From the NCBI GenBank assembly GCA_965603595.1, contig CBFDDP010000002.1, positions 847 through 64,846 of the forward strand: DNA of 64,000 nucleotides. The letters run 5' to 3'. The notes beneath the pieces are model-generated. The model was not told where the DNA came from, ran no database searches, and was given only the letters and a program-made list of their open reading frames with translations. This stretch comes from an uncultured bacterium. GTDB lineage: Bacteria > Spirochaetota > B62-G9 > DRHN01. How positions within the stretch are numbered: position 1 is the stretch's first letter; each line of letters begins with the position of its first letter. The position numbers and the translations under genes are program-made. Positions 546-24,285 of the stretch are shown piece by piece.

Positions 546-1541
546 ATGAAGAACAAAAAGTTAATGGTCATCGCGCTTGTGACCCTTTTCTGCTTTACAG
601 TCATGGTTCCAAGCATGCTCTTTGCAAAGGATGACAAACCGGGCAAGGGGATGTACTTTCGCCTTGTCACACACGGCGGCAACGACCCCTTCTGGGCAGT
701 CTTCCAGCAGGGGATGAGAGATGCTGCCAACGAGCTTGGCTGCAGGGCTGACATCGATCTCGCGGGTTCTGATCTCCAGCTCCAGCAGAAACGATTTCAG
801 GAAGCAGTGGCAATGAGGCCCGATGGAATAGCGCTTGTTATCAATAACAACACGATGTGGGACAAGCCCGTTGCCGATGCCATCGCCAAGGGCATCCTCG
901 TCATCGGCACCAACAACGATGATGAGCAGGGATCGGCTGGCAATGCCAGGCTCGCCTACATCGGGCAGAACGAACGGCGTGCCGGATTGATGATCGGACG
1001 TGCGGTATTGGAGGCTGCCAAGAAATCGGGCAAGAACATGTCGAACCTCAAGGTCGCCGCAGCGGTAGAGGTTCCCGGTGCCAACTACGGTGTCGTCAGG
1101 AGTTCGGGAATCAAGGATGCAATGATAGAATATGGCGTAAAGGGAGACATAGAAATAGTCGACGCAACACTGGAAATGACCACCGCAGAGTCGAGAATCA
1201 CCTCCTATGTGATTGCGAATCCTGACATCGACTGTCTCTTCGGTCTTGGCGGCATCACAACCGACAGAATCACCTCGGCACTGAAGAACGCCAGGAAGAA
1301 ACCGGGACAGGTCCTTGCCGGCGGATTCGATGCCGCACCGGGTACGCTGACCGGCCTCGAGACCAACTACATGGTCGCCTCGATCGATCAGCAGCAGTAC
1401 CTGCAGGGCTACTTCTCGGTGTATGTGCTCTATCTGATGAAGAATTACGGATTTGCACCTCAGATCGACACCGGCGGTTACCTCATCACCAAGGACAACA
1501 TCGAACTGATCAAGAAACTGTCACCGAAACACATCAGGTAA
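546..1541 (+). CDS. Periplasmic sugar-binding protein of an ABC transporter (periplasmic binding protein / LacI-like fold, ribose/xylose type), with a signal peptide.
   Basis: N-terminal hydrophobic signal sequence (MKNKKLMVIALVTLFCFTVMVPSMLFA). Peripla_BP-like composition with the typical GGNDPFW and GTNNDD segments. First gene of an ABC operon. Confidence 0.8.
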   Translation: MKNKKLMVIALVTLFCFTVMVPSMLFAKDDKPGKGMYFRLVTHGGNDPFWAVFQQGMRDAANELGCRADIDLAGSDLQLQQKRFQEAVAMRPDGIALVINNNTMWDKPVADAIAKGILVIGTNNDDEQGSAGNARLAYIGQNERRAGLMIGRAVLEAAKKSGKNMSNLKVAAAVEVPGANYGVVRSSGIKDAMIEYGVKGDIEIVDATLEMTTAESRITSYVIANPDIDCLFGLGGITTDRITSALKNARKKPGQVLAGGFDAAPGTLTGLETNYMVASIDQQQYLQGYFSVYVLYLMKNYGFAPQIDTGGYLITKDNIELIKKLSPKHIR

Positions 1542-1737
1542 CGGTAACGATGAAATAGTCATTGATTCCAACTGCACTGGCCCCGAGTCTCACGGCTCGG
1601 GGCCCGATTTTCAACCGCAGTTTTTAGCGGGTTATGTGTGCAGGAGCACTGCGGCCTATTCGTGGACACTCGATGAGTGGTTGAGTAGCAGGAGGATATT
1701 TCCAAAAACCCTATCCGGGGAAAGGAATGGTTATTTC

Positions 1738-2712
1738 ATGCAACGTTTTTTTAATCGTTTTTTTTCTTTCAGGGCATCATTTACGCTTGTCGTTTTTATT
1801 GCACTGCTCATCTTTTTCGGTATATTTTCCGCCGACCACAGCTTCTTCAAGGCGGCAAATCTTACAGCAATGACACGGCTCGCACCAGACCTGGGACTCG
1901 TCGCCCTCGGTGTCGGGTTGCTCATGATCGCAGGGGAGTTCGATCTCTCCGTTGCATCAACCATACCACTCAGCTCCTTTGTGTTTGTTAAACTACTCAG
2001 CTGGGGAACTCCACTCATATTCTGCCTGCTCGTGACCTTCTTCGCGGGTGCGCTCGTCGGATTCCTGAACGGTATGATAGTCACAAAGACGAAGCTCCCC
2101 TCCTTCATCGTGACGCTGGGCACCATGCTCTTCTGGCGCGGGCTCGTCTATGCGGCCTCGCGCATGATGCCTATCGGTATACGTGCATGGCTCGATTTCG
2201 GATCATGGATCGAAAAGATGTTTGTGGGGAGTGTGTTCGGTGTGATCCCGGTTCAGATACTCTGGCTTCTGTTCTTCGCAATCGTCCTCGGTTTTCTTCT
2301 TCACTTCAATAAGTTCGGCAACTGGGTCTATGTGACCGGCGATAATGTGACCGCAGCCCGTGCAATGGGCGTAAACACGGACGGAGTTAAAATCACCTGT
2401 TACATGATCGTCGGCTTCCTGTGCGCTTTCATGGGCATGATGCAGAATATACGTATCGAATCCTTTGCCGCAAATCAGGGTGTCGGTTTCGAACTCAAGG
2501 CGATTGCTTCCTCAGTTGTGGGGGGAACAGTGCTCAGCGGCGGCATCGGGAGCATACCGGGTATATTCCTGGGAACGCTCACCATACATATAATCGAAAA
2601 TGGCCTCATACTCATGGGTGCGCCTCCCTTCGGTATCAGTGCCTTTATCGGTGCGGCTATCATCATATTTGCGGTACTCAACGTTGCCGCGGCCCGCGTA
2701 AGCGGCAAATAA
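1738..2712 (+). CDS. ABC transporter permease (RbsC/BPD_transp_2 family).
   Basis: Multiple TM segments and the conserved LMIAGEFDLSVAS motif. Start chosen at the ATG at 1738 (MQRFF...), which is preceded by GGAAAGGA. The longer ORF from 1636 has no RBS. Confidence 0.85.
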   Translation: MQRFFNRFFSFRASFTLVVFIALLIFFGIFSADHSFFKAANLTAMTRLAPDLGLVALGVGLLMIAGEFDLSVASTIPLSSFVFVKLLSWGTPLIFCLLVTFFAGALVGFLNGMIVTKTKLPSFIVTLGTMLFWRGLVYAASRMMPIGIRAWLDFGSWIEKMFVGSVFGVIPVQILWLLFFAIVLGFLLHFNKFGNWVYVTGDNVTAARAMGVNTDGVKITCYMIVGFLCAFMGMMQNIRIESFAANQGVGFELKAIASSVVGGTVLSGGIGSIPGIFLGTLTIHIIENGLILMGAPPFGISAFIGAAIIIFAVLNVAAARVSGK

Positions 2713-2732
2713 ACGGTTTTCAGGAGAATGAA

Positions 2733-3530
2733 ATGAGTGATCAAAAATTCCCTGCTGCAAAGAAGGCGTCAATAAAAAGTGCGAAAAAGGATGCTCCGAT
2801 TGTCAGGATGGTCGATATCGACAAGTGGTTCGGCAAGGTATGCGCCTTGAGGAATATTGACTTTCATGTGAACCAAGCTGAGATAGTCGGTCTGGTGGGT
2901 GACAACGGTGCGGGAAAATCCACGCTGATCAAGGTACTGTCGGGCTTCCACCGCGCTGATAAAGGGGAGATCTTCTTTGAGGGAAACCGGGTAAACTTCA
3001 ACAGTCCGAAGGATGCAAAGCGGCTTGGTATAGAAACTGTGTATCAGGAGCAGGCCCTCGCGCCCCACGTTTCCATCGCCCGGAACGTATTCATGGGAAG
3101 GGAACCCACCAGGGGTCTCGGTTTTATGGACCGGAAGAAGATGGATGAGGAGAGCATGGGCGCAATCACCAAACTGGGGCTCCGCATCAAGGATCCGGAA
3201 GCGGTGGTTGAGGCCCTCTCCGGCGGACAGCGGCAGGGAGTGGCAATTGCCCGTGTGCTCTACTTTGAGGCAAAGCTGGTCATACTCGATGAGCCAATCA
3301 TCGCGCTTTCCGTCAAGGAGTCGCAGCAGGTACTTGGTTTCACACAGCAGCTCAAGGCCCAGGGCATCTCGGTCATTTTTATCACGCATAATATATTTCA
3401 TGTTTTCCAGGTGGCCGACCGGTTTTTCATACTATCACACGGCGAGGCGTTGGCCGATGTGAAGAAGGAAGATACGAATATCGATCATCTCATTGAGCTG
3501 ATCGTGAGCGGCACGCTGGAGAAGATGTGA
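2733..3530 (+). CDS. ABC transporter ATP-binding protein with a single nucleotide-binding domain.
   Basis: Walker A GDNGAGKST, signature LSGGQRQ, Walker B ILDEP and H-loop ITHN. The ATG at 2733 is preceded by CAGGAGAA. The listed longer ORF from 2421 overlaps the permease and is rejected as the start. Confidence 0.85.
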   Translation: MSDQKFPAAKKASIKSAKKDAPIVRMVDIDKWFGKVCALRNIDFHVNQAEIVGLVGDNGAGKSTLIKVLSGFHRADKGEIFFEGNRVNFNSPKDAKRLGIETVYQEQALAPHVSIARNVFMGREPTRGLGFMDRKKMDEESMGAITKLGLRIKDPEAVVEALSGGQRQGVAIARVLYFEAKLVILDEPIIALSVKESQQVLGFTQQLKAQGISVIFITHNIFHVFQVADRFFILSHGEALADVKKEDTNIDHLIELIVSGTLEKM

Positions 3531-3568
3531 TCCCCTGAAGGAACAATGTATGAAGAGGGAAGGAGTAT

Positions 3569-4576
3569 ATGGCAGAAAAAGCTTCGAGGAAAAATAAATT
3601 GGGAAGCGCCCTGTTACGGATGCGCGCCCTGAGCGTGTTTATTATTTTCGTACTGCTATTCATCGTGTTTGCCGTATTCTCGCCCGGTCACCGGTTCAGC
3701 AGCGGGGAAAACATGCAGATATTCATGTCCATTGGTGCGGAGTTCAATATCGTGGCAATCGTGGTGGGCATGCTCATGATTGCCGGCGAGTTCGATCTCT
3801 CGGTTGGCTCGATACTCGTGTTTTCAAGCTGGAACTTCTACGTGCTGTACAATGCGGGTGTGCATATACTGCTTACATTCATACTGGTTCTCTGCATCGG
3901 CGGCGTCGTTGGTTTTATCAACGGTATCATCACCGTGAAGGCAAAGATACCCTCATTCATCACCACACTGGGAACAATGCTGTTGTGGCGGGGTGTGACG
4001 CTGATGTGGTCGGGGGGCCTGCAGGCAGGCATGGACCTGGAGCAGAACCCGATCATGTACAAGGCAATTACCGGTTCCATTGGCAACCTCATCCCTGCGC
4101 AGTTCCTATGGTTTCTCCTGATCGCGCTCATTATTGCCCTGGTCATGCACTTTCACAAGTTCGGCAACTGGATCTTCACCACCGGCGACAACAAGATGGC
4201 TGCACGGGCCATGGGAATCAATACTGACCGCATCAAGATCATCTGCTTCATGGTTGTGGGCACTGCAGTCGCCTTTGTGGCTGTCATGCAGATGTACAGG
4301 GCGAGCACCTTTTCAGCCCGTGCAGGTGACGGATGGGAGCTCAAAGCCATTGCCGCTTCCGTGGTTGGCGGGACGGCACTTACCGGCGGTATAGGGAGTA
4401 TGATGGGTATATTCTGGGGTGCCCTGGTTATCTCAATTATCGAGAACGGGCTTATCTTTTTGAGAATCAACTACTGGTGGATCTTTACCGTGTTCGGGGT
4501 GATTATCGTATCTACAGCTATCATATCCAAGTATCTCGAGCAGCGACGCGTTATGGCGGGCGCGGAAAAAACCTGA
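3569..4576 (+). CDS. Second ABC transporter permease (RbsC/BPD_transp_2 family).
   Basis: LMIAGEFDLSVGS motif and multiple TM helices. Paralogous to the 1738..2712 permease. A GGGAAGGAG RBS lies upstream. Confidence 0.85.
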   Translation: MAEKASRKNKLGSALLRMRALSVFIIFVLLFIVFAVFSPGHRFSSGENMQIFMSIGAEFNIVAIVVGMLMIAGEFDLSVGSILVFSSWNFYVLYNAGVHILLTFILVLCIGGVVGFINGIITVKAKIPSFITTLGTMLLWRGVTLMWSGGLQAGMDLEQNPIMYKAITGSIGNLIPAQFLWFLLIALIIALVMHFHKFGNWIFTTGDNKMAARAMGINTDRIKIICFMVVGTAVAFVAVMQMYRASTFSARAGDGWELKAIAASVVGGTALTGGIGSMMGIFWGALVISIIENGLIFLRINYWWIFTVFGVIIVSTAIISKYLEQRRVMAGAEKT

Positions 4577-4655
4577 CTGCTGAGAATGATCAGTTATCCT
4601 TCGATACTCAAGATCTGGACAGGAAGGGGGATGGAAAAAAGCTGAAAAAATATGG

Positions 4656-4684
4656 TTGACAAAAAAGAGTATACATACTAAGAA
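4656..4684 (+). promoter_or_regulatory. Putative promoter for the trpB2 leader transcript (TTGACA -35 at 4656-4661, 17-nt spacer, TAAGAA -10-like).
   Basis: A perfect -35 hexamer with a weak -10, about 35 nt upstream of the leader peptide ATG. Confidence 0.3.
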
Positions 4685-4717
4685 TAGTTTCAATCCTATA
4701 CAAGGGCTGTTCGATAC

Positions 4718-4777
4718 ATGAAGTCAGCACTGTTTAACATCGTGGTTGATTGGTGGTGGTGGACCGGCTCCCGGTAG
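4718..4777 (+). CDS. Trp-operon-type leader peptide of 19 aa, MKSALFNIVVDWWWWTGSR, with four consecutive Trp codons.
   Basis: ATG at 4718. TGG TGG TGG TGG at 4751-4762. TAG at 4775-4777. Immediately followed by alternative hairpins and a terminator upstream of trpB2. Confidence 0.6.
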   Translation: MKSALFNIVVDWWWWTGSR

Positions 4778-4846
4778 GAGTGGTCCATCCGGTTCGAAGA
4801 ACTGCACCGTGGACTTCTCCACCGGGAGAAGCCCACGGTTTTTTTG
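4745..4846 (+). promoter_or_regulatory. Transcription attenuator with Trp-codon control: segments 1:2 pause/anti-antiterminator, 2:3 antiterminator, 3:4 terminator.
   Basis: TGGACC (4759-4764, overlapping the Trp codons) can pair with GGTCCA (4783-4788). GGAGTGGTCCA (4778-4788) is nearly complementary to TGGACTTCTCC (4810-4820). Terminator: CCGTGGACTTCTCC (4807-4820), ACCG, GGAGAAGCCCACGG (4825-4838), then TTTTTTT (4839-4845). Confidence 0.55.
4807..4846 (+). terminator. Rho-independent attenuator terminator (14-bp imperfect stem plus a U7 tract).
   Basis: Inverted repeat CCGTGGACTTCTCC / GGAGAAGCCCACGG followed by TTTTTTT. Confidence 0.6.
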
Positions 4847-4855
4847 TGTACTAGA

Positions 4856-4886
4856 GGCCGTGGGATACACATCCCGCGGCTTTTTT
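4856..4886 (+). terminator. Second, tandem hairpin plus U-tract downstream of the attenuator.
   Basis: GCCGTGGGA (4857-4865), loop, TCCCGCGGC (4872-4880, one mismatch), then TTTTTT (4881-4886). A further perfect hairpin GTGCGCCC/GGGCGCAC lies at 4892-4911. Confidence 0.4.
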
Positions 4887-4972
4887 AAATTGTGCGCCCG
4901 GCAGGGCGCACCATCTGGAAAGAGGCACACATTTTTGAGGGTGTATATAAATCTTTATTGAAGGAGAGTGCA

Positions 4973-6337
4973 ATGGAAAGAACAAAGTATGTTCTGGACG
5001 AAAAGGATTTACCAACGAAGTGGTACAACATTCAGGCGGACCTTCCTGAGCCCCTGCCCCCGCCACTCCATCCGGGAACAGGACAGCCCCTCGGACCGGA
5101 GGATCTGGCTCCCCTGTTTCCCATGGAGCTCATTAAGCAGGAGGTGAGTCAGGAGCGATTCATCGAGATTCCCGAGGAGGTGCTCGATATCTACAAGCTG
5201 TGGCGCCCCACGACTCTGTTCAGGGCCCGCAGGCTCGAGAAGGCCCTCGATACCCCGGCCAAGATCTACTACAAGTACGAGGGGACAAGCCCTCCCGGCA
5301 GCCACAAGCCCAATACCTCTGTACCGCAGGTCTACTACAGCATGAAGGAGGGGATCAAGCGGATTTCCACAGAAACAGGTGCAGGTCAGTGGGGAAGCTC
5401 TCTTGCCTTTGCTGGCGCATGTTTCAATGTTGATATCAAGGTGTATATGGTACGTATTTCCTACAATCAAAAGCCCTATCGCCGGGTCATGATGCAGACA
5501 TGGGGTGCGGAGTGCGTTCCGTCGCCTTCACCGGACACGAATGCCGGAAGGAGCATGCTCGAGCGTGATCCTGACTGCCCCGGAAGCCTCGGGCTTGCCA
5601 TTTCAGAGGCTGTAGAGGATGCCGTGTCCCGCGAAGATACCCATTATTCTCTCGGGAGCGTTCTCAACCATGTGCTGCTGCATCAGACCGTTGTCGGTCT
5701 CGAGGCAAAGGCCGTGCTCGAGGATATCGGCGACTATCCCGACATTCTGGTCGGCTGTGTGGGAGGAGGTTCGAATTTTGCGGGGCTATTCCTGCCCTTC
5801 CTGAAGGACAAGATCGATGGCAAGAAGCCGGACCTGCGTGTCGTCAACGTGGAACCTGCGAGCTGCCCCACTCTGACAAGAGGGCCCTACGCCTACGATT
5901 TCGGTGATGAGGCAGGACTCACACCCCTGTTGAAGATGTTTACCTTGGGGCACGGTTTTATCCCACCGCCCGTGCATGCGGGGGGTTTGCGCTATCACGG
6001 CATGGCGCCCATCGTCTGCCATCTGCTGAACATCGGACTGGTCGAGGCAGTGGCCATACATCAGCTCGAAACCTTCGAGGCAGGCATCACCTTTGCGAAG
6101 AACGAGGGGATCATCGCAGCGCCTGAAACCGACCACGCGATCAGGACAACTATCATAGAAGCTCTGAAGTGCAAGGAGACGGGAGAAAAGAAGACCATAC
6201 TCTTCAACTGCAGCGGCCACGGTCACTTCGACATGAGTGCCTATGAAGCATACCTGGCAGGCAAGCTGCATGATTACGAGTACCCACAGGAAAAAATCGA
6301 GCAGGCACTCAAGGACCTTCCGAAGGTCCCTTCCTGA
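4973..6337 (+). CDS. trpB: TrpB2-type tryptophan synthase beta-like PLP enzyme (stand-alone indole-scavenging type).
   Basis: The [28 protein letters not shown]-terminus is typical of the TrpB2 family. PLP-enzyme motifs ([14 protein letters not shown]) are present. The ATG at 4973 sits behind a perfect AAGGAGA RBS. The listed longer ORF from 4892 has no RBS. Confidence 0.85.
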
Positions 6338-6364: not shown

Positions 6365-6403
6365 GGGCAGGGGGGGAGCACTCTTTCCTGCCCGATTATT
6401 TTT
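6365..6403 (+). terminator. Rho-independent terminator after trpB2.
   Basis: GGGCAGG (6365-6371), 15-nt loop, CCTGCCC (6387-6393), then GATTATTTTT. Confidence 0.55.
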
Positions 6404-16420: not shown

Positions 16421-16821
16421 AACAATCGGTACTGTTTATCTGCACCCACAATTCCGCCCGTTCACAGATGGCGGAGGGGCTCTTGAATCACTTCCGCGGT
16501 GACAGTTTCAGGGGATACAGCGCCGGTATCGAGGCGACCCGCGTGCATCCCTATGCAGTGCGCGCACTTGCCGATATCGGTATCGATACAAGCGGGCATC
16601 GTTCTAAAACGGTTGAAGAGTTTCAGGGAGAAACCTTCGATACAGTTGTAACCGTGTGTGACAATGCGCGTGAGTCCTGTCCCTTTTTCCCGGGAAGAAG
16701 GGTGATTCACCGGAGCTTTCGCGACCCGTCGTGCACGGAAGGAAGTGATGCTGAAATACTACAGGACTTCAGAGAGGTGCGGGACGAGATACGGGCCTGG
16801 ATCGATGAGGAGTTTATATGA
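16417..16821 (+). CDS. arsC: Arsenate reductase of the LMW-PTP, thioredoxin-coupled type.
   Basis: The [14 protein letters not shown]-loop (CX5R) with downstream Cys residues. 134 aa. Confidence 0.85.
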
Positions 16822-17570
16822 GCTCCTCCATCTTGTGTTTCACTGCCGCATAGACGCCCTTTCCCCTATTCTCCATGATTGTTCGCACAAAAGCTGAGCC
16901 CACGATTGAGGCGTGCACATGGGGTGCAAGAAGATCTATCTGCTCTCGATGAGAAATCCCGAAACCTGCAAGAATCCTGATCTCCCTCTTACCGGTGGCA
17001 GTGCTGATCCTTCGTAAAAACCCGATGTTGTCGTCTCCTATCTCTGTGACCTTTCCCGTTATACCCTTTCTGAGCGCAGCGTACAGGAAGCGTGGCTCAG
17101 AATGGAGTATGGATTCCAGCCGCTGCGGCCCTATGGTGGGAGCAACCACAGGTACGGCACTCATACCATACTTCTCTGACAGGCGGAACAGGTCTTCATC
17201 ATAGTCAAAGGGCAGGTCAGGAACGATGAGCCCCTGTACCCCCTGCTGCGCGCAGCTATCGATAAAGGCTTCAACACCGCTGTGGAACAGGGTGTTCCCG
17301 TAGCACATGATGAAGATGGGGGTGTCGGATATCGCACGAATACTGCTTACAAGCTCGAACCCGCGCCTGACCTTGAATCCATTTTCAAGGGCTTGTGTAC
17401 AGGCAGTCTGAATGGCAGGCCCGTCTGCTGTTGGGTCGCTGAAGGGGAACTGTATCTCCAGATAGGTACTCCCTCCGTCTATCATGGCAGCGGCGACTTC
17501 CATTGAACTGGCCCCATCGGGATAATAGGCCACCATATGAGTCATCAGCCTATGCTTCATCTTCTCTTCC
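16814..17570 (-). CDS. trpA: Tryptophan synthase alpha chain.
   Basis: MKHRLMTHMVAYYPDG...YLEIQFPFSDPTADGP...GFGIS is the TrpA pattern. The start ATG was mapped at 17570-17568. The listed 419-aa ORF is an upstream in-frame extension overlapping trpB. Confidence 0.9.
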
Positions 17571-18827
17571 TTCCTGCAGGAGAAAATCTCTCCAGCCTTT
17601 TCCGGCAAGCTGCTTTGCCAGTATGAAGAGGTCCTTGTCTCCGCGTCCGGACATGTGGACAATAATCGCCCGGTTTTCGGGCAGTTCAGGTGCCATTTCC
17701 AGTGCCGCTGCTCCCGCATGTGCTGATTCGAGGGCGAATATGAGGCCTTCATGGGAGGCAAAGAACCGAACCGCTGCAAGCGATTCATCGTCGCTCGCAC
17801 TGGTGAATTCGATACGGCCATCCTGCCCCAATCTGGCGAGCTGTGGACCGATTCCTGGATAATCGAGACCGGCCGATATGGAGTGTGTTTTCCCGACCTG
17901 CCCGTCATCGTCGAGCAGGAACAGAGATTTGTAGCCGTGTACAATACCGGGTCTGCCGAAGCCCCCCATCCTCGCAGCGTGTTCTCCCGGGCCTGAGCCT
18001 CTGCCGCCAGCCTCAACCCCGACGAGGCGCGGTTTCTCACGGCCAAGAAAAGGCGCGAAGAACCCGATTGCATTGGACCCTCCGCCCACGCAGGCGATGA
18101 GCGCCTCGACTTCCAGGCCCAGTCTTACCATCTCCTCCTCAACCTCTCTGCCAATGACTGACTGGAACTCCCGGACCATATCGGGGTAGGGTGAGGGCCC
18201 CAGGGCTGAACCGATGAGGTAGTGGGTGGATGTGAAGCTTCCCGCCCAGTCCCTGAGAGCCTCGTTGATAGCATCCTTGAGCGTTTTGGAGCCCGAAACA
18301 ACGGGAACGACCTCGGCCCCGAAAAGCTCCATCCAGAAAACGTTGGGCCGCTGCCGCCACATGTCTATTTCACCCATGTACACACGGCACTTCAGGCCGA
18401 GCTTTGCGCAGGCAGCCGCGGTCGCCACACCATGCTGGCCGGCTCCTGTTTCAGCAATGATTCTTTCCTTACCCATGCGCTTGGCGAGCAGCGCCTGGCC
18501 CAGCGCATTGTTGATCTTGTGGGCTCCCGTGTTTGCAAGGCCTTCGAGCTTGATATAGATTTGGGCGCCACCGCAGCTGTGGGTTGCGTTCTGTGCAAAG
18601 AGAAGAGGTGTCGGTCGTCCCGCATAGGAGACCAGAAGGTCCTGTAGTTCTGAGCAGTATGCATCGCTATCCATGCTCTCTCGCCAGGCTATCTCGAGTT
18701 CATCGAGGGGTGTCCTCAGTATCTCGGCAACGTAACGACCGCCGAAATCACCGAAATAGTCGTTGTATATCCCTTTCACCTGCTTCTCCTCATTACGATG
18801 GGGTTCATGTATCTGTATCCATGCCAT
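17550..18827 (-). CDS. trpB: Tryptophan synthase beta chain (TrpB1 type).
   Basis: NDYFGDFGGRYV, the PLP Lys in GAHKINNALGQ, and GGGSNAIG. Start MAWIQ mapped to the ATG at 18827. The listed 557-aa ORF is an artefactual extension. Confidence 0.9.
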   Translation of the reverse strand: MAWIQIHEPHRNEEKQVKGIYNDYFGDFGGRYVAEILRTPLDELEIAWRESMDSDAYCSELQDLLVSYAGRPTPLLFAQNATHSCGGAQIYIKLEGLANTGAHKINNALGQALLAKRMGKERIIAETGAGQHGVATAAACAKLGLKCRVYMGEIDMWRQRPNVFWMELFGAEVVPVVSGSKTLKDAINEALRDWAGSFTSTHYLIGSALGPSPYPDMVREFQSVIGREVEEEMVRLGLEVEALIACVGGGSNAIGFFAPFLGREKPRLVGVEAGGRGSGPGEHAARMGGFGRPGIVHGYKSLFLLDDDGQVGKTHSISAGLDYPGIGPQLARLGQDGRIEFTSASDDESLAAVRFFASHEGLIFALESAHAGAAALEMAPELPENRAIIVHMSGRGDKDLFILAKQLAGKGWRDFLLQEGREDEA

Positions 18828-20274
18828 AAGAACCGGTGATCTTGCATATGCCTTCGATTTCCTTGAAGAATTGTACCATGATGCTAGAGTCCTTGGTCCC
18901 GGGTTCGGATTCAAGCCTGCTCGAGGCGTCGATGAGTTCCGGCTCAAAGGAGCTGATAATCTCTGCAACGTTATCGGGTCCGATGCCCCCTGCCAGCCAA
19001 AGAGGGTGCAGCCTGCGGACAGACTCGATGAGTTTTGTCGATATCCTCTGCCCTGTGCCCCCGGGTTTTCCGGGAACGAAGGCATCGACCAGGACCCGGG
19101 GGCAGTGGAAGGAGTCGATACGCTCCACATCCTCATCTCCCCCGATCCGCAGGGCCTTGTAATAGGGAAAGGCCGCCCTGTAGCAGTTGTCCGGGTGCTC
19201 ATCACCATGAAACTGCAGGGCATCTATGCATCCTTCCGACAGAAGCCTGTTCACGGCGCTATCGATCGACCGGTCCTCTTCCCCATGCACCACGACTGCC
19301 ACCTTGAGCTGTTTGAGGTCGGTGATTCTTTCGGGAAGTCCGGGATCCGCACATCTGGGTGAATCGGCAAATATGAAACCAAGTACATGGGCACCCAGTT
19401 CCGCGGCGAGCCGGGCATCCCGTTCCCTGGTGATTCCGCATATCTTCACCAGCGGCTTTCCTTCAGCCATGGAGGAGAAGAGGCGGTACCAGAAATCTCC
19501 AATGCCTTCCCGCTCGAGGGCGGTTATCCGTCCGATGAGGTCTGTATCCCTCATCGCACCTTCGCCGATGAGCATTCCTGTAAAACCGCCGGACAGGGCA
19601 ACTGCCGCATCCTCGGTGGAGCGTATACCTGATTCAAAAACCGTACGGGTACTCCAGTCTATGGATTTTTTAAGGGCAAGAGGGACTGCCGGATCAATAC
19701 GAAAGGTCGCTAAGTTCCTGCTGTTTATTCCCGTTATATCAGGCTGCACCAAAGCTGCCTTACTGAGGTCCTCGCGGTCGTGTACTTCAAGGAGAACCTC
19801 GAGACCGAGGCTCTTTGCCCTGCGATACAGTCTGCCCAGTGTGCCTGCGTCATGCATGGAGGCAATGAGGAGTATTGCATCTGCCCCTGCCCTGTAGGAA
19901 ACCGTGATATCATCCTCATCGAGAATGAAATCCTTCCGCATGACGCAGAGGTCAGGGAAGGAGTTCTTGATCCTGAACAGGTCCTCCAGTGAACCGTGAA
20001 AATATGTCTCCTCGGTGAGGACTGAGAGGGTTTTAATTCCCCTCTTGGCGTAGTGTCCGGCCTGGCGGACTGCATCAGCTTCCACTGCAAAGATCCCGCG
20101 AGACGGTGAGCCCCGCTTGACTTCACTGGCAATGAAAAAATCCCTGCCCGGCTGCAGTCTTCCGAAGGGAACAAGGGGTACGGTTCTGCGTCGAGGAAGG
20201 CTGCGCCCCATACTGGGGCCCAGGCGAGCGATACTCCTCTTTCTCGCCTCGACGATTTCATCGATGATACTCAT
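18805..20274 (-). CDS. trpC: Bifunctional indole-3-glycerol-phosphate synthase / phosphoribosylanthranilate isomerase (fused TrpC-TrpF).
   Basis: An N-terminal IGPS pattern followed by a PRAI domain starting near [11 protein letters not shown]. 489 aa. Overlaps trpB by 23 nt. Confidence 0.85.
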
Positions 20275-21887
20275 GCGCCTACCCCCCTCTCCCGTAGTGT
20301 GAGCCCGACCTTTCTGATCTCATCCAGTTTCTCCGCAGTCCTTCCCGATTCCAGAGCCTCAAGGGCAGCCCTGTACCCCTCTGCAATCCCCAAAGCCTTG
20401 CCGGCAACGTAGAGGGCTGCACCTGCATTGAGAGCCACTGATTCTCTCAGGGTGTGATTTCCGCCTCCTCCCAGCAGCTCCAGGGCAATGTCGGCGTTGT
20501 CTTCCGGTGTACCGCCCATGAGATCATCCATGGAACATTCTTTAATACCCAGCTCTTCTGGACGGAGGAGATACTCGACAGCCCCATTCCCACTTCCGGT
20601 TTCCACAACGGTTGTGGGTGCGCACACCGAGATCTCGTCGAGACCGTCGTGGCTATGTACAGCCATGACTTTTTTCCTTCCAAGCATATGGGAAGCCTGT
20701 GCCATGGGTGTACAGAGGTTCCCGCTGTAGACGCCGAGAAGCTGGAAGTCAACGTCAGCAGGATTGATGAGTGGTCCGAGAAGGTTCATCACCGTTTGAA
20801 TACCGAGCTCTCTTCGAACAACTGCAACGTGCTTCATCGAACGGTGATAGAGAGGGGCAAAGAAGAAGGCGAATCCCGTTTGCTGCAGGAGCTTCTCTGC
20901 TTCATCGGGCTGCAGATCGATCGGGATACCGAGCCGCTCATAGAAATCGGCACTCCCGGAACGGGAACTGACGCTTCTGTTCCCATGCTTGGCGACCCGT
21001 ACACCGCAGGATGTGGCAATAAGCGCAGCCATGGATGATATATTGAAGGTCCCGGAATGGTCTCCTCCTGTACCACAGGTATCGATGCAGGGTTCCGTGC
21101 TGTGCACCGACAATTTCTTTCGGTTCAGGACAGAGGCAAGTCCGTAGAGCTCTTCTGCCGTAACCTGCCTCGTGTTCATGGCTGTAAGAAAGGAGGCGGT
21201 TTGCGCTTCGGTGAGTTCTCCGTTTGTCATCTCCTCCATAATCGATGCGGCCTGCTCCCCGGAGAGTTCTTCACCTGAAAGTATGTGTGTTATGATGTCG
21301 GGTATATTGAAAGGTTCCCGAATGTAGTGGATGAAATTTTGCAGGATCTTCTTGCCGTATTCCGACGCGATGGATTCGGGGTGAAACTGAACACCCTCCA
21401 CGACGTGTTCCCGGTGCCGAATACCCATGATTTCCCCGTCTTTTGTGAAAGCGGTTATCTCCAGCTCAGGCGGAAGGGTCTCGCGATACACGGCCAGAGA
21501 ATGATAGCGTGTCAGCCTGACGGGTGAGGGTATGTTTCTGAAGAGACCTTTGCCGTCATGGACGATGTCATCGGTTTTACCGTGCACGATGCTGTTGGCC
21601 CGCTTTATGGAGCCACCGAAGGCGTACCCGATGGCCTGATGGCCAAGACAGACTCCCAGTATCGGTATCCTGCCTGTGAAGTGGGTGATCACTTCAACCG
21701 ATATTCCAGCCTCATCGGGTCTTCCAGGACCGGGTGATATGAGTATGGCTTCCGGACACAGGTCTTCGATGCGGGGGATATCGATACGGTCATTCCTGAA
21801 CACCTGTACCTCGCCGTCGTAGAGCTGCGTTATGTACTGATAGAGGTTGTAGGTAAAAGAGTCATAGTTGTCGATGATGAGAATCAT
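20271..21887 (-). CDS. trpD: Bifunctional anthranilate synthase component II (glutamine amidotransferase) / anthranilate phosphoribosyltransferase (fused TrpG-TrpD).
   Basis: N-terminal class-I GATase ([15 protein letters not shown]...GVCLGHQ) followed by the TrpD motifs DTCGTGGD and KHGNRSVSS. 538 aa. Confidence 0.85.
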
Positions 21888-21889
21888 GA

Positions 21890-23389
21890 TTACACCTCCA
21901 TTCCCAGTGATTTACCGAGGGCACGTAATTTTTCAGATGTTTCCTCGAGCTCCCGTTCCGGGACAGAATCCCACACAATGCCTGCTCCCGCCTGCAGAAT
22001 AAGCAAATCATCCTTGCGCAATGCGCTCCGGATGGTGATACAGGTGTCAAGGGAACCATCGGGTTCGATATACCCCACTAGACCGGCATAGAAGCTGCGG
22101 GCGCACTCTTCGAGTGAGTCAACGATTTCCATGGCTCGTATTTTCGGTGCCCCGGATACCGTCCCTGCGGGGAAGGTTTTTCGTATTGCCTCGATTCCCC
22201 TCCTGTCCGGCCTGAGCTCACCCTCAACCTGCGATACAATATGCATCACATGTGAGTAATGCTCTACTGCATTGAATTCCGTAACCTCCACGGTACCGGG
22301 AACGCACACGCGGCCCAGGTCATTGCGTGCGAGGTCTACGAGCATCAAATGTTCGGCCCGCTCCTTTTCATCGGAAAGAAGTTCTTTCTCCAGTGCCAGG
22401 TCCTCTTCCCGGGTTTCACCTCTCCGGCGCGTGCCGGCGATGGGTCGGGTGATGACGCGATTCCCCTCGACTTTGACGTGCATCTCAGGGGAAGAGCCGA
22501 AGAGCTGAAATGAGCCGAAATCAAGGAAAAACATGTAGGGTGAGGGGTTGAGAGAGCGAAGCCGCCTATAGGCTTCGAGGCCCGGCATCTCGGTTTGAAG
22601 AATGACCCGTCTCGACAGCACACCCTGCAGTATGTTCCCCTTCTTTATTTCCCGACGTATCCTGATAACCCCGTCTGTAAATCGATCCTTTTCTGAATCG
22701 GGACTCAACATGATACACCCATACTCTCTCTGAGAGGGGCTCAGATAATTAAAGTCCAGATCGTGTATGCGTTCTTCGGTCTCGTCAACCGCGCGTTCAA
22801 GGTTTATTTCGAAACCGTCATAGTTCAGGGCCACGATGGAGATAGTGTCAGTGTAGTGATCAAAGATAAGAAACAGGTTGCCGCACATGAATGCCGCCTC
22901 TGGCAAACCCAGGCTGTCGATCTTCGACTTCAGACGTACATCATCGAAATGGCGCGCAAACTCATAGCTAAGATAGCCGATTCCGCCTGCGGGGAAGGGA
23001 AAACTGCGGTGTTCCTCTCTATGCTGGTCTGCCAGGGACTGAAGAACATCAAGGATGTCTCCTGACGGAGAGTGGGCTCCTGACGGTGCGTGAGTACCTG
23101 ATGCAAAATTGGCTCCCGACCATGTACGGGCCCCTGTCGAGGAGTGCTCTGTACCCTGTGGCAGGGGAAACACCTCGCCGTCACGGACAAGGGTTATGGA
23201 CCCGCCATCTTGCTGAACCTTAAATGCTTCCTTCACCAGAATGAGTGAGAACCGTGCCTTGCCCCTGGCAAAGGAAGCTGATTCGAGTAGTGCCCGTCCG
23301 TCCAGCTTTCTATACAGCGAATAGGGGGTGAATTTTTCCCCTGAAATGACCCTGACCATGCTGTTTTTTATCTTTCTCTCAGTTCGCAT
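21890..23389 (-). CDS. trpE: Anthranilate synthase component I.
   Basis: Chorismate-binding-enzyme pattern (LESA, GYLSYE, RGxYAGxVGY). An AGGAGG RBS lies 7 nt upstream of the ATG. Preceded by the attenuator. Confidence 0.9.
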
Positions 23390-23418
23390 GAGCTTTTCCT
23401 CCTGAAGAATATTCCCTC

Positions 23419-23458
23419 AATAGAAAAAGGCCGTAAAACCGAAATCGGTCTTACGGCC
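23419..23458 (-). terminator. Attenuator terminator of the trp operon on the minus strand.
   Basis: Minus-strand transcript GGCCGUAAGACCGA, UUUC, GGUUUUACGGCC, then UUUUUCUAUU, about 30 nt upstream of trpE. Confidence 0.6.
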
Positions 23459-23468
23459 TGTACGAAAC

Positions 23469-23510
23469 AGGCCGCAGAACCTGGCTTGTCTGAGCCAGAA
23501 CCTGCGGCCT
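23469..23510 (-). promoter_or_regulatory. Attenuator upstream hairpin (9-bp AGGCCGCAG/CUGCGGCCU outer stem with a nested CUGGCU/AGCCAG stem). Its 3' arm can alternatively pair with the terminator's 5' arm as an antiterminator.
   Basis: Perfect inverted repeats read directly. CGGCCU (3' arm) is complementary to AGGCCG at the start of the terminator stem. Confidence 0.5.
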
Positions 23511-23534
23511 ATCAGGTGAACGCACTGGTTCCGG

Positions 23535-23612
23535 CTAGTGCCAGAACCACCACCGGTTGTTATTGTTCGATGTAATCACTGTATCGAAACCCTGCATTTT
23601 TTTCTCACTCAT
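23535..23612 (-). CDS. trpL: Trp operon leader peptide of 25 aa, MSEKKMQGFDTVITSNNNNRWWFWH, with 3 Trp codons in the last five positions.
   Basis: Reverse complement of 23535-23612 reads ATG ... CGG TGG TGG TTC TGG CAC TAG. It sits between a TTGACA promoter and the attenuator hairpins. Confidence 0.55.
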   Translation of the reverse strand: MSEKKMQGFDTVITSNNNNRWWFWH

Positions 23613-23635
23613 TTCTACTCTGTAGAAGTTGACCT

Positions 23636-23663
23636 AGGATACCCTATGCTCATGAAATGTCAA
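23636..23663 (-). promoter_or_regulatory. Putative sigma70 promoter of the trp operon (minus strand): TTGACA -35 at 23663-23658, 16-nt spacer, TATCCT -10 at 23641-23636.
   Basis: Reverse complement of 23636-23663 reads TTGACATTTCATGAGCATAGGGTATCCT. Confidence 0.35.
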
Positions 23664-23673
23664 GAGAAATCGG

Positions 23674-24285
23674 TCACATGCGTACAAAATCGTTGTGCCG
23701 CTTCTCCTCTCCAATGGTGGTGTGCTCACCATGTCCGGTATACACCCTGGTGTCATCGGGTAGCACGTAGAGTCTCTGAAGTATACTGACCCGCAGATCT
23801 TCCGCTGAACCTGTGGGAAGGTCCGTCCTTCCCACAGAGTGGTAGAAGAGGGTGTCGCCTGCAAAGAGCATATCCCTGATCCTTATACAGATACTTCCCA
23901 CCGTATGGCCCGGTGTGTGTATGACCTCAAGATCGGTTCCGTCAAAGGGGAGCCTGTCCCCATCTTCGAGAAGCTTATCTGGTGCTACGGAGATATAGGG
24001 AGAGTCAACCATGATAGAGAGGTTCAGCCCCGGATTCAAAAGCATTGTATAATCATACTTGCTGACAACCAGTGTGGTGTCGTAGCGGGCTTTCAGTGCG
24101 TTGTTGCATCCGATATGGTCGTAATGCCCGTGCGTATCAATTATATAGAGGAGTTTTCGCTTGCCTATTTCCGGGTAAATGAGTTCGGGGTTCCCTCCGG
24201 GATCGATTACAACTGCCTCCTGTTCATTTCTCAGGATATAGCAATTTGATGACATGATGCCCAACACTTTTGGTATCAGCTGCAT
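23674..24285 (-). CDS. MBL-fold metallo-hydrolase (hydroxyacylglutathione hydrolase-like).
   Basis: HxHxDH motif IDTHGHYDHIG and downstream His/Asp ligands. 203 aa. Confidence 0.75.
   Translation of the reverse strand: MQLIPKVLGIMSSNCYILRNEQEAVVIDPGGNPELIYPEIGKRKLLYIIDTHGHYDHIGCNNALKARYDTTLVVSKYDYTMLLNPGLNLSIMVDSPYISVAPDKLLEDGDRLPFDGTDLEVIHTPGHTVGSICIRIRDMLFAGDTLFYHSVGRTDLPTGSAEDLRVSILQRLYVLPDDTRVYTGHGEHTTIGEEKRHNDFVRM

Follow-up and report, generated by a model that had tools for sequence, protein, structure and literature searches.

A predicted tryptophan leader-peptide attenuator with two terminators in series upstream of a stand-alone trpB2 gene

The trpB2 gene discussed here lies in a 64,000-nucleotide stretch of DNA from an uncultured bacterium (contig CBFDDP010000002.1 of assembly GCA_965603595.1, positions 847 to 64,846, forward strand), which is called the window below. 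The gene encodes a TrpB-like pyridoxal phosphate (PLP) enzyme. Its product scores 733.8 bits on the NCBIfam model PRK12391 (cut-off 366), which bears out the earlier naming of the gene, and 650.1 bits on TIGR01415 (cut-off 518.85). On the TrpB1 model TIGR00263, it scores 140.1 bits, below the cut-off of 392.45. We take the TrpB2 family to be COG1350. The gene is preceded by a short open reading frame (ORF) with a run of tryptophan (Trp) codons and by several hairpins. A model that read the letters alone had taken these for a classical Trp-codon leader peptide and attenuator (hereafter, the original prediction), and this reading is supported by the analyses below. A trpB2 start at GTG 4892, which would give a 481-aa ORF, was rejected, since the family models align from residue 2 of the protein that begins at ATG 4973 and the AAGGAG site fits this start. 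trpB2 is monocistronic. It is followed by its own terminator-like site, and the next gene, encoding a GAF histidine kinase, has a separate promoter-like site. The trp operon (trpE-GD-CF-B1-A) lies 17 kb off on the other strand, in agreement with the description of trpB2 as a stand-alone gene. The operon is complete and contains the fused genes trpG-trpD and trpC-trpF. The genome encodes both TrpB1, within this operon, and TrpB2.

The features of the trpB2 leader are collected in Table 1. The promoter-like site matches 10 of 12 positions and is the only plus-strand match of the promoter scan in 4400-5200. Its TTGACA is invariant in three related loci (L087, L145, and L153). The 19-codon leader ORF with its four consecutive TGG codons was confirmed. 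The 12-mer of the TGG run, TGGTGGTGGTGG, occurs once in the 64-kb window against an expectation of 0.02 from shuffles. Trp codons 3 and 4 fall within the 1:2 hairpin (within 4757-4790; -20.2 kcal/mol), and the predicted overlap of Trp codons with segment 1 is thus found. Terminator T1 (4807-4838) has an energy of -22.3 kcal/mol and is followed by seven U residues. It had been described as a strong terminator with a 14-bp stem and U7. The strength and the U7 stand, whereas the stem consists of 13 pairs and one A/C mismatch. The second predicted hairpin with a U-tract is also present. This is terminator T2 (4854-4883; -22.0 kcal/mol), in which the U6 tract overlaps the end of the stem. The ribosome-binding site of trpB2 was likewise recovered as AAGGAG. 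Folding of 4690-4975 gives -119.5 kcal/mol, compared with -88.3 +/- 4.9 kcal/mol for dinucleotide shuffles (z = -6.4), and none of 200 shuffles was as stable. An internal promoter between T2 and trpB2 was considered and rejected, since the promoter scan gives it no support.

Table 1. Coordinates of the trpB2 leader, of neighboring features in the window, and of related leaders in other loci
Feature	Position	Strand	Details
Promoter-like site, sigma-70-like	4656..4685	+	TTGACA 4656-4661, 18-nt spacer, AAGAAT 4680-4685
Leader Shine-Dalgarno-like AAGGG	4702..4706	+	11 nt before leader ATG
Leader peptide ORF, 19 codons, MKSALFNIVVDWWWWTGSR + stop	4718..4777	+	ATG 4718, TAG 4775-4777
Four consecutive Trp codons (TGG; regulatory codons)	4751..4762	+	
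Segment 1, 5' strand of 1:2 hairpin	4758..4771	+	overlaps Trp codons 3 and 4
Segment 2, partner of segment 1 or segment 3	4777..4794	+	begins at last base of stop codon
Terminator T1	4807..4845	+	segment 3 4807-4820, loop, segment 4 4825-4838, U7 4839-4845
Proposed 4:5 helix, T2 antiterminator	4832..4864	+	4832-4843 paired with 4853-4864
Terminator T2	4854..4886	+	segment 5 4854-4866, loop, segment 6 4871-4883, U6 4881-4886
Hairpin 3, GTGCGCCC-GGCA-GGGCGCAC, perfect 8-bp palindrome	4892..4911	+	-14.6 kcal/mol, without U-run
Weak helix, 4925-4937 with 4959-4971	4925..4971	+	would occlude trpB2 Shine-Dalgarno site 4961-4966
trpB2 Shine-Dalgarno site AAGGAG	4961..4966	+	6 nt upstream of ATG 4973
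trpB2, TrpB-like PLP enzyme, 454 aa	4973..6337	+	PRK12391, TIGR01415
Terminator-like hairpin after trpB2	6365..6393	+	would end the trpB2 transcript
Sugar ABC-transporter operon, upstream of trpB2	546-4576		permease stop 4576
Main trp operon: trpE, trpGD, trpCF, trpB1, trpA	16814..23389	-	17 kb from trpB2
Second Trp attenuator (predicted), upstream of trpE	23420..23612	-	leader MSEKKMQGFDTVITSNNNNRWWFWH 23612-23535, T1 23513-23467, T2 23460-23427
Tyr/Phe-rich leader, locus L179	1229-1317	+	
Tyr/Phe-rich leader, locus L132	2520-2633	-	
Tyr/Phe-rich leader, locus L140	1019-1139	-	
Tyr/Phe-rich leader, locus L135	2186-2307	+	
Tyr/Phe-rich leader, locus L093	1861-1947	-	
Tyr/Phe-rich leader, locus L156	476-595	+	
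Tyr/Phe-rich leader, locus L103	2623-2736	+	

Alternative structures were examined by constraint folding, in which the RNA under a ribosome footprint was masked with the ribosome placed at each of the four Trp codons (W1-W4) or at the stop codon. Segment 2 can pair with segment 1 or form a duplex with segment 3 (4767-4794 with 4805-4829; -38.4 kcal/mol). A stall at Trp codon 1 or 2 gives a minimum-energy fold in which the long 2:3 antiterminator takes the place of T1. A mask at the stop codon hides segment 2 and yields T1. The first base of segment 2 is the last of the stop codon, so that this segment would lie under a terminating ribosome. The mutually exclusive set of 1:2, 2:3, and 3:4 structures in the original prediction is borne out by these masked folds. 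The barrier for refolding from 2:3 to T1 is estimated at 10-16 kcal/mol. The overlap of 1:2 with Trp codons 3 and 4, the exclusive 2:3 and T1 structures, and the stop codon at segment 2 are the defining features of a classical leader-peptide attenuator. On this computational evidence, it is highly probable that a classical Trp leader-peptide attenuator lies upstream of trpB2.

T2 adds a further possibility of pairing. Within the window, CCCACGGUUUUU (4832-4843), which comprises the end of segment 4 and the U-run, can form 12 pairs with AGAGGCCGUGGG (4853-4864) in segment 5. As a cis hairpin, this 4:5 helix has an energy of -17.9 kcal/mol, compared with -22.0 kcal/mol for T2. If T2 were constitutive, it would reduce induced and basal expression to the same extent, and trpB2 could be inducible only if starvation relieved T2. 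An obvious candidate for this relief is the 4:5 helix, because segment 4 is free only once 2:3 has prevented T1.

The mechanism that we propose is a relay of six segments. Transcription would begin at the promoter-like site, and the leader would be translated while the RNA is being synthesized. When Trp is plentiful, the ribosome would reach the UAG codon and cover segment 2. Segments 3 and 4 would then pair, and T1 with its U7 would halt the polymerase. Any polymerase escaping T1 would meet T2 (5:6), which would form since segment 4 is locked in T1 and unable to hold segment 5. When Trp is scarce, the ribosome would stall on the four UGG codons and cover segment 1. This would allow the long 2:3 antiterminator to form and would block T1. 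The freed segment 4, together with the U-run, would capture segment 5 as it emerges, and T2 would come too late. With T1 and T2 both disarmed, the polymerase would read into trpB2. The off state would thus consist of 1:2, 3:4, and 5:6, and the on state of 2:3 and 4:5. The underlying complementarity can be followed as a chain from the UGG codons (UGGUGG.., ..CCA.C, CCGUGG, CCCACGG, CCGUGGG, CCCRCGG). In such a relay, one stall would control two terminators, and basal read-through would be multiplicatively lower with no second sensor. We infer the translation of the leader, the response to Trp, and the kinetic competition that lets 4:5 block T2. Overall, we assign a probability of about 0.7 to a ribosome-mediated attenuator with a 4:5 relay, through which trpB2 expression would depend on charged tRNA-Trp. 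For the step in which T2 itself is antiterminated, computation and an estimate of kinetic plausibility lead us to regard it as fairly probable.

T2 was assessed in 99 non-redundant metagenome loci, with trpE, trpD, and trpB2 contexts included. It is present in 95 of them (18/18 for trpB2, 25/25 for trpD, and 32/32 for trpE). The spacer between the T1 U-run and T2 has a median of 12 nt and a range of 0-25 nt. CCGUGG, which complements the T1 3' arm exactly, is found in the T2 5' arm of 78 of the 95 loci, and five more loci have wobble-compatible variants. At the variable interior positions of 4:5, 92 of 134 cells pair, compared with 60.4 +/- 4.7 after partners are permuted across loci (P < 2e-4). 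The helix also extends past the conserved core by 2.39 pairs, against 1.62 +/- 0.13 in the permuted sets. At one 4:5 position, 50 cases are paired, and in 34 of these the base in segment 5 is not that of segment 3; the pairing is thus more than identity inherited from a duplication. The CCGUGGG..CCCACGG stem could also be a generic terminator or a mobile element. This was rejected: a survey of 770 kb of loci gave 366 copies of the CCGUGG..CCACGG stem, of which 352 are found no more than 400 nt from a W leader, and the window holds one copy. The tandem terminators had been read as a sign of very tight basal shut-off. They amount to more than this. The arrangement is family-wide and its arms are mutually complementary, which had not been noted in the original prediction, and this implies antitermination of T2.

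A second Trp leader in the window itself is relevant here. The region upstream of trpE (23389-21890, minus strand) contains a promoter-like TTGACA, a leader ORF, two hairpins with U-rich tails, and AGGAGG before the trpE start. T1 and T2 of this leader have energies of -34.0 and -24.7 kcal/mol. Their stems (GGCCGCAGG... and GGCCGUAAG...) differ from those of the trpB2 leader, yet segments 4 and 5 can again form a hairpin, of 14 pairs and -23.8 kcal/mol. The family proposed here, with a W-run ORF followed by T1 and then, 0-25 nt on, by T2, and with a T1 3' arm and U-run that complement the T2 5' arm, is described by a covariance model, R1, which matches this leader with 25.3 bits (E = 8.6e-4). 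The trpB2 leader scores 92.8 bits on the same model, a value to be read in light of the window being a seed sequence of R1. The trpE leader is an independent case of 4:5 complementarity.

Relatives of the leader were collected in two ways. The protein-homology set comprised the 80 best genome-collection loci encoding TrpB2, chosen without reference to a leader. W-rich leader ORFs precede trpB2 in four of these 80 loci, with the motifs NNWWWWAESP (L002), NWNWWWH (L014), NQNWWWRR (L020), and NWCWWNN (L042). The closest TrpB2 among the genome-collection matches listed, with 82% identity, is encoded in L002, a Spirochaetota bin. This locus is syntenic upstream (ABC ATPase 82% and permease 72% identical) and has the same leader architecture; on the strength of this synteny, the host of the window is placed, as probable, in the Spirochaetota. 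A DNA pattern search of metagenomes for three TGG codons, CCGTGG, CCACGG, and a T-run yielded at least 120 loci. In about 117 of them, a short ORF ends soon after the W-run; L096, L097, and L162 look like chance matches to the pattern. Among the pattern loci listed, the genes downstream, identified with Pfam and phmmer, are trpE (37), trpD (28), trpB2 (23), and class I/II aminotransferase (3). Nearly all pattern loci keep an in-frame start, the W-run, and a stop just before or after segment 2, and the peptide sequences differ. Attenuation of a trpB2 gene had been called unusual in the original prediction. This does not hold, since it is seen in 18 non-redundant metagenome loci and several genome bins. 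Judged from these sequences, Trp-leader control of trpB2 is a recurrent arrangement in nature.

A fifth W-rich leader from the protein-homology set was noted in L030, a Cytophagia bin. At 1973-2091 on the plus strand, the leader MNYNPSKIAALSNRVNVSWRWWWWTVFSGLRPFIFF carries the motif WRWWWW about 1 kb upstream of trpB2 and is followed by a single terminator.

The conservation and covariation looked for in relatives were both found, for the Trp codons and the hairpins alike. Twelve metagenome contigs encode a TrpB2 identical to that of the window. Among nine places retrieved, the leader sequence is unchanged except in L087, where four substitutions relative to the window are found, all upstream of the leader ATG. 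In the alignment with L145 and L153, the sequence from the W-run through the T1 U-run is nearly invariant, and divergence is found in the N-terminal codons of the leader, in the promoter flank, and in the region after T2. The leader ORFs of L145 (MKSALFDIPVDWWWWTGSR) and L153 (MESTVPHILVDWWWWTGSR) are of equal length to that of the window despite many codon changes, and a purine-rich AGGG or GAGG is kept at the position of the leader Shine-Dalgarno site. Covariation was examined in an alignment of 70 non-redundant family members; kinship among these means that the shuffle counts given here are not strict probabilities. In the terminated structure (1:2, T1, T2), 89.0% of cells are paired, compared with 39-54% when partners are slid, and 161 cells are changed on both sides, compared with 59.6 +/- 6.7 in shuffles (0/500 reach 161). 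The antiterminated structure (2:3, 4:5) has 85.7% of cells paired, compared with 44-56% with slid partners, and 80 double-change cells, compared with 42.4 +/- 6.2 (0/500). The interior of the T1 stem covaries across the family, and T2 has changes on both sides in 11 of 14 pairs. Averaged over the family, the duplex energies of the five helices lie close together (-19.8, -21.1, -20.7, -19.3, and -22.6 kcal/mol).

Other leaders are encoded next to the trp leaders on some contigs. Tyr/Phe-rich leader ORFs, such as MAKVVINNQSWQGFYFYFERRGLPMD and MTTQQSWQNYYYFYFWRGGSLSMG, lie on the opposite strand about 300-1300 nt from trp leaders (Table 1). They are presumably attenuators responding to aromatic amino acids. 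Each has a single terminator built on the same GCCGUGGGCAG..CCCACGGC stem, and the doubling of the terminator is thus specific to the Trp leaders on these contigs. A different case is found in L042 (1150-1400, minus strand), where a Phe/Tyr-rich leader, MLFYFANLIFKTFCWRFYFIFIKSAQHP, diverges from the trpB2 leader and has two terminators. Both have the stem CCAUGGG..CCCAUGG. The T1 3' arm and the T2 5' arm are perfectly complementary there, with the sequence changed.

Several observations weigh against the proposed mechanism. The leader Shine-Dalgarno site is modest and stands 11 nt from the ATG. A simple terminator pattern scan of 4780-4930 flags neither T1 nor T2. The scan probably missed them through its pattern rules, since the stem of T1 is interrupted by a mismatch and that of T2 overlaps its U-run. 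The miss is a limit of the pattern and not evidence against the hairpins, and it is a caution against relying on the scan alone. The pattern used to collect the metagenome loci fixed the outer T1 stem, so that the diversity of T1 is censored in this sample. With the ribosome masked on Trp codon 3 or 4, the minimum-energy fold retains T1. For a stall at these codons, the model would require that a shortened antiterminator (-21.2 kcal/mol) win kinetically, as in the textbook case. At equilibrium, T2 is folded in every ribosome-position scenario. Equilibrium folding thus fails as a demonstration of 4:5, and refolding barriers were estimated instead. According to findpath, refolding from 4:5 to T2 has to pass a barrier of 7.7 kcal/mol, and the same method gives 5.8 kcal/mol for the 2:3-to-3:4 transition of E. 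coli trpL. Since T2 is favored at equilibrium, the relay requires folding under kinetic control. The classical E. coli switch likewise depends on kinetically controlled folding. In about 12 of the 95 loci with T2, the T2 5' arm weakens 4:5; for example, CCAUGG stands opposite CCCACGG in L090, L108, L112, and L173, and the arm is inverted in L168 and L169. Finally, Trp leaders with a single terminator exist (L014, L020, L030, and the second leader of L121), and two terminators are thus not required for Trp attenuation.

Some of these points would be expected if the leader and T1 were an ordinary Trp attenuator and T2 an independent, unregulated back-up or a remnant of T1 duplication that lowers expression by a constant factor. 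The 4:5 helix would then be a by-product of shared stems. The arm motifs CCGUGGG and CCCACGG are indeed common to T1 and T2 in most loci, and if their stems became alike through duplication or gene conversion, 4:5 complementarity follows of itself. This confound is lessened but not eliminated by the covariation tests. The equilibrium stability of T2, the imperfect 4:5 pairing in a minority of loci, and the single-terminator leaders also favor a T2 of this kind. However, a constitutive T2 offers no regulatory gain, yet T2 is kept in nearly all loci and in three gene contexts, and at a constrained distance from T1. The interior of 4:5 covaries, and its pairs are often kept when segments 3 and 5 are not alike. 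The trpE leader of the window keeps a stable 4:5 helix with unrelated stems. In addition, the single terminators of the Phe/Tyr-rich leaders on the same contigs argue that doubling is no general habit. We therefore consider a back-up or remnant T2 unlikely and prefer the relay.

The signal might also be read by something other than the ribosome, such as uncharged tRNA (T-box type), a TRAP-like protein, or a small-molecule riboswitch, with the W-rich ORF being incidental. Nothing specific favors this, although the leader contains several (G/U)AG triplets. A TRAP-regulated leader would have nine to eleven (G/U)AG repeats that overlap the antiterminator and stand 2-3 nt apart. TRAP-type control was rejected, since the nine triplets (4775, 4778, 4826, 4852, 4854, 4922, 4937, 4964, and 4966) are scattered irregularly over 283 nt and form no regular array. 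Neither the Rfam T-box model, with its Stem I, specifier loop, and T-box sequence, nor any other Rfam family matched either leader at E up to 10, and no family reached its gathering score across the whole window. The Rfam family Trp_leader (presumably RF00513) had no match at E up to 10 in 4000-6000 or 23300-23750. The start codon, W-run, and stop near segment 2 kept in nearly all of the roughly 120 family members, as well as the ORF length kept in L145 and L153 despite codon changes, argue against an incidental ORF, and a non-ribosome sensor is very improbable. A third explanation assigns T1 and T2 to the upstream sugar ABC-transporter operon as its terminators, with an unrecognized trpB2 promoter downstream of T2 and the W-rich ORF arising by chance. 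No terminator-like hairpin was seen between the permease stop and the leader, as judged by eye only, and the stretch between T2 and the Shine-Dalgarno site includes an AT-rich block, TGTATATAAAT (4942-4952), that is conserved. On the other hand, the 4656 site is the single plus-strand match of the promoter scan, and the chance expectation of the W-run is low (see above). At least 75 non-redundant loci have the series of WWW ORF, T1, and T2 in front of trp genes, and the trpE of the window has it as well. This explanation is hardly credible.

Further features lie between T2 and trpB2. A third perfect hairpin had been noted in the original prediction. It is present but stands outside the conserved architecture: L153 has a deletion there, and L145 has unrelated sequence at this position. 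A role as a third lock was rejected on this ground, since the hairpin is missing or replaced in the two closest relatives. Hairpin 3 is probably lineage-specific and outside the switch, and its palindrome may serve as an RNA stem particular to this lineage or as a DNA site to which a protein binds. Downstream of it, the block GCACACATTTTTGAGGGTGTATATAAA (4925-4971) is conserved in L145 and L153. The weak helix that it can form has a consensus energy of -8.95 kcal/mol, with 14 pairs kept in three sequences and one-sided changes only, which is weak evidence. A second small ORF is found between T2 and trpB2 in a subgroup of relatives (L207 at about 6225-6320, minus strand, and L133, L201, L131, L205, L202, and L160) and is absent from the window leader. 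It has a strong Shine-Dalgarno site in most members of the subgroup, not in L160. A conserved Trp-Pro motif of this ORF overlaps a GGCCCC..GGGGCC hairpin (e.g., MRKRYFAIIWWPRRGRKRE, MAQTSRRWPPPGA, MKNFKYWPPLGAMEIKKI, and MRILRSVRILWPLGG...). The ORF may provide a second layer of control, translational or through an arrest peptide. In the sugar ABC-transporter operon, the ORFs 2421-3530 and 1636-2712 overlap. The ATPase family match begins near residue 126, and the listed GTG start of the ABC ATPase at 2421 probably lies too far upstream.

The predicted attenuator resembles several known systems. The trp attenuator of E. coli and Salmonella likewise has a short leader ORF with tandem Trp codons, a 1:2 hairpin overlapping the regulatory codons, a stop placed for ribosome masking of segment 2, mutually exclusive 2:3 and 3:4 structures with a U-run, and a tryptophan-pathway gene downstream. 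Unlike the E. coli leader, the window leader has four Trp codons rather than two and two consecutive terminators with the proposed 4:5 helix. It controls a monocistronic trpB2 and not trpE, in a host that is probably a member of the Spirochaetota. The two also lack similarity at the level of sequence or covariance model, as judged by the Rfam Trp_leader search described above.

The his attenuator of Salmonella and E. coli has six segments, which pair as A:B, C:D, and E:F or as B:C and D:E. This scheme was reportedly proposed by Johnston, Barnes, Chumley, Bossi and Roth in 1980. There too, the position of the ribosome is passed on far along the RNA by helices that alternate, with three consecutive hairpins in the off state and two interleaved helices in the on state. 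Only E:F terminates in his, whereas 3:4 and 5:6 of the window each carry a U-run. The his attenuator is the nearest precedent for the helix relay. Tandem T-boxes and tandem riboswitches place two tRNA or ligand sites in series. The mgtCBR leader of Salmonella has tandem attenuators with two leader ORFs (PMC3641672). Like the window leader, these systems make two decisions in series in one leader, from which a sharper or deeper response is expected. However, they use two sensors, while the window has one leader ORF and the signal would be passed on by RNA pairing.

Trp attenuators of Actinobacteria have been predicted by comparative genomics, including that of 'trpB2A' in Corynebacterium diphtheriae (PMC1262725). 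These share leader peptides with 2-3 UGG codons, GC-rich terminators, and a second trpB copy with the system described here, and differ in their gGCC-rGCy-GGCC motifs; no tandem terminators were reported (PMC1262725). The 'trpB2' of C. diphtheriae appears to be a number for the second trpB linked to trpA, and its family is unstated (PMC1262725). The rimP leader has a second, tandem terminator in some Gammaproteobacteria (PMC2965389). Its two terminators are in series and have related stem motifs, as in the window. In contrast, it has no leader peptide and responds to a different signal, its stems are inverse motifs, and there is no 4:5 relay (PMC2965389). In a literature search that left most subscription journals outside, neither Trp-leader attenuation of a TrpB2-family gene nor relay-coupled tandem terminators in leader-peptide attenuators were found, and precedents may exist for either. 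The mechanism belongs to a textbook class; provisionally, the tandem-terminator variant is considered new and widespread.

With these results, the range of ribosome-mediated attenuation would come to include many uncultured bacteria and a lineage that probably belongs to the Spirochaetota, and model R1 provides a covariance model for a family that lies outside Rfam. If the relay is wrong, an ordinary and well-supported Trp attenuator in a new gene context remains. If it is true, dynamic range is gained from one sensor through two serial terminators, a design that could be reused in synthetic biology. We lean slightly toward a broader view, in which a widespread and unannotated class of Trp attenuators occurs in uncultured bacteria, with one Spirochaetota bin among the hosts. 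In this class, one stalled ribosome would disarm two terminators via six segments, and trpE, trpD, and the indole-salvage gene trpB2 would form one regulon under charged tRNA-Trp. The physiological role of stand-alone TrpB2 enzymes is still debated. Placing trpB2 under the same charged-tRNA-Trp signal as the trp operon of this genome would argue that TrpB2 is a genuine tryptophan-starvation enzyme. Such regulation is consistent with indole rescue and argues against a housekeeping role or an unrelated PLP enzyme.

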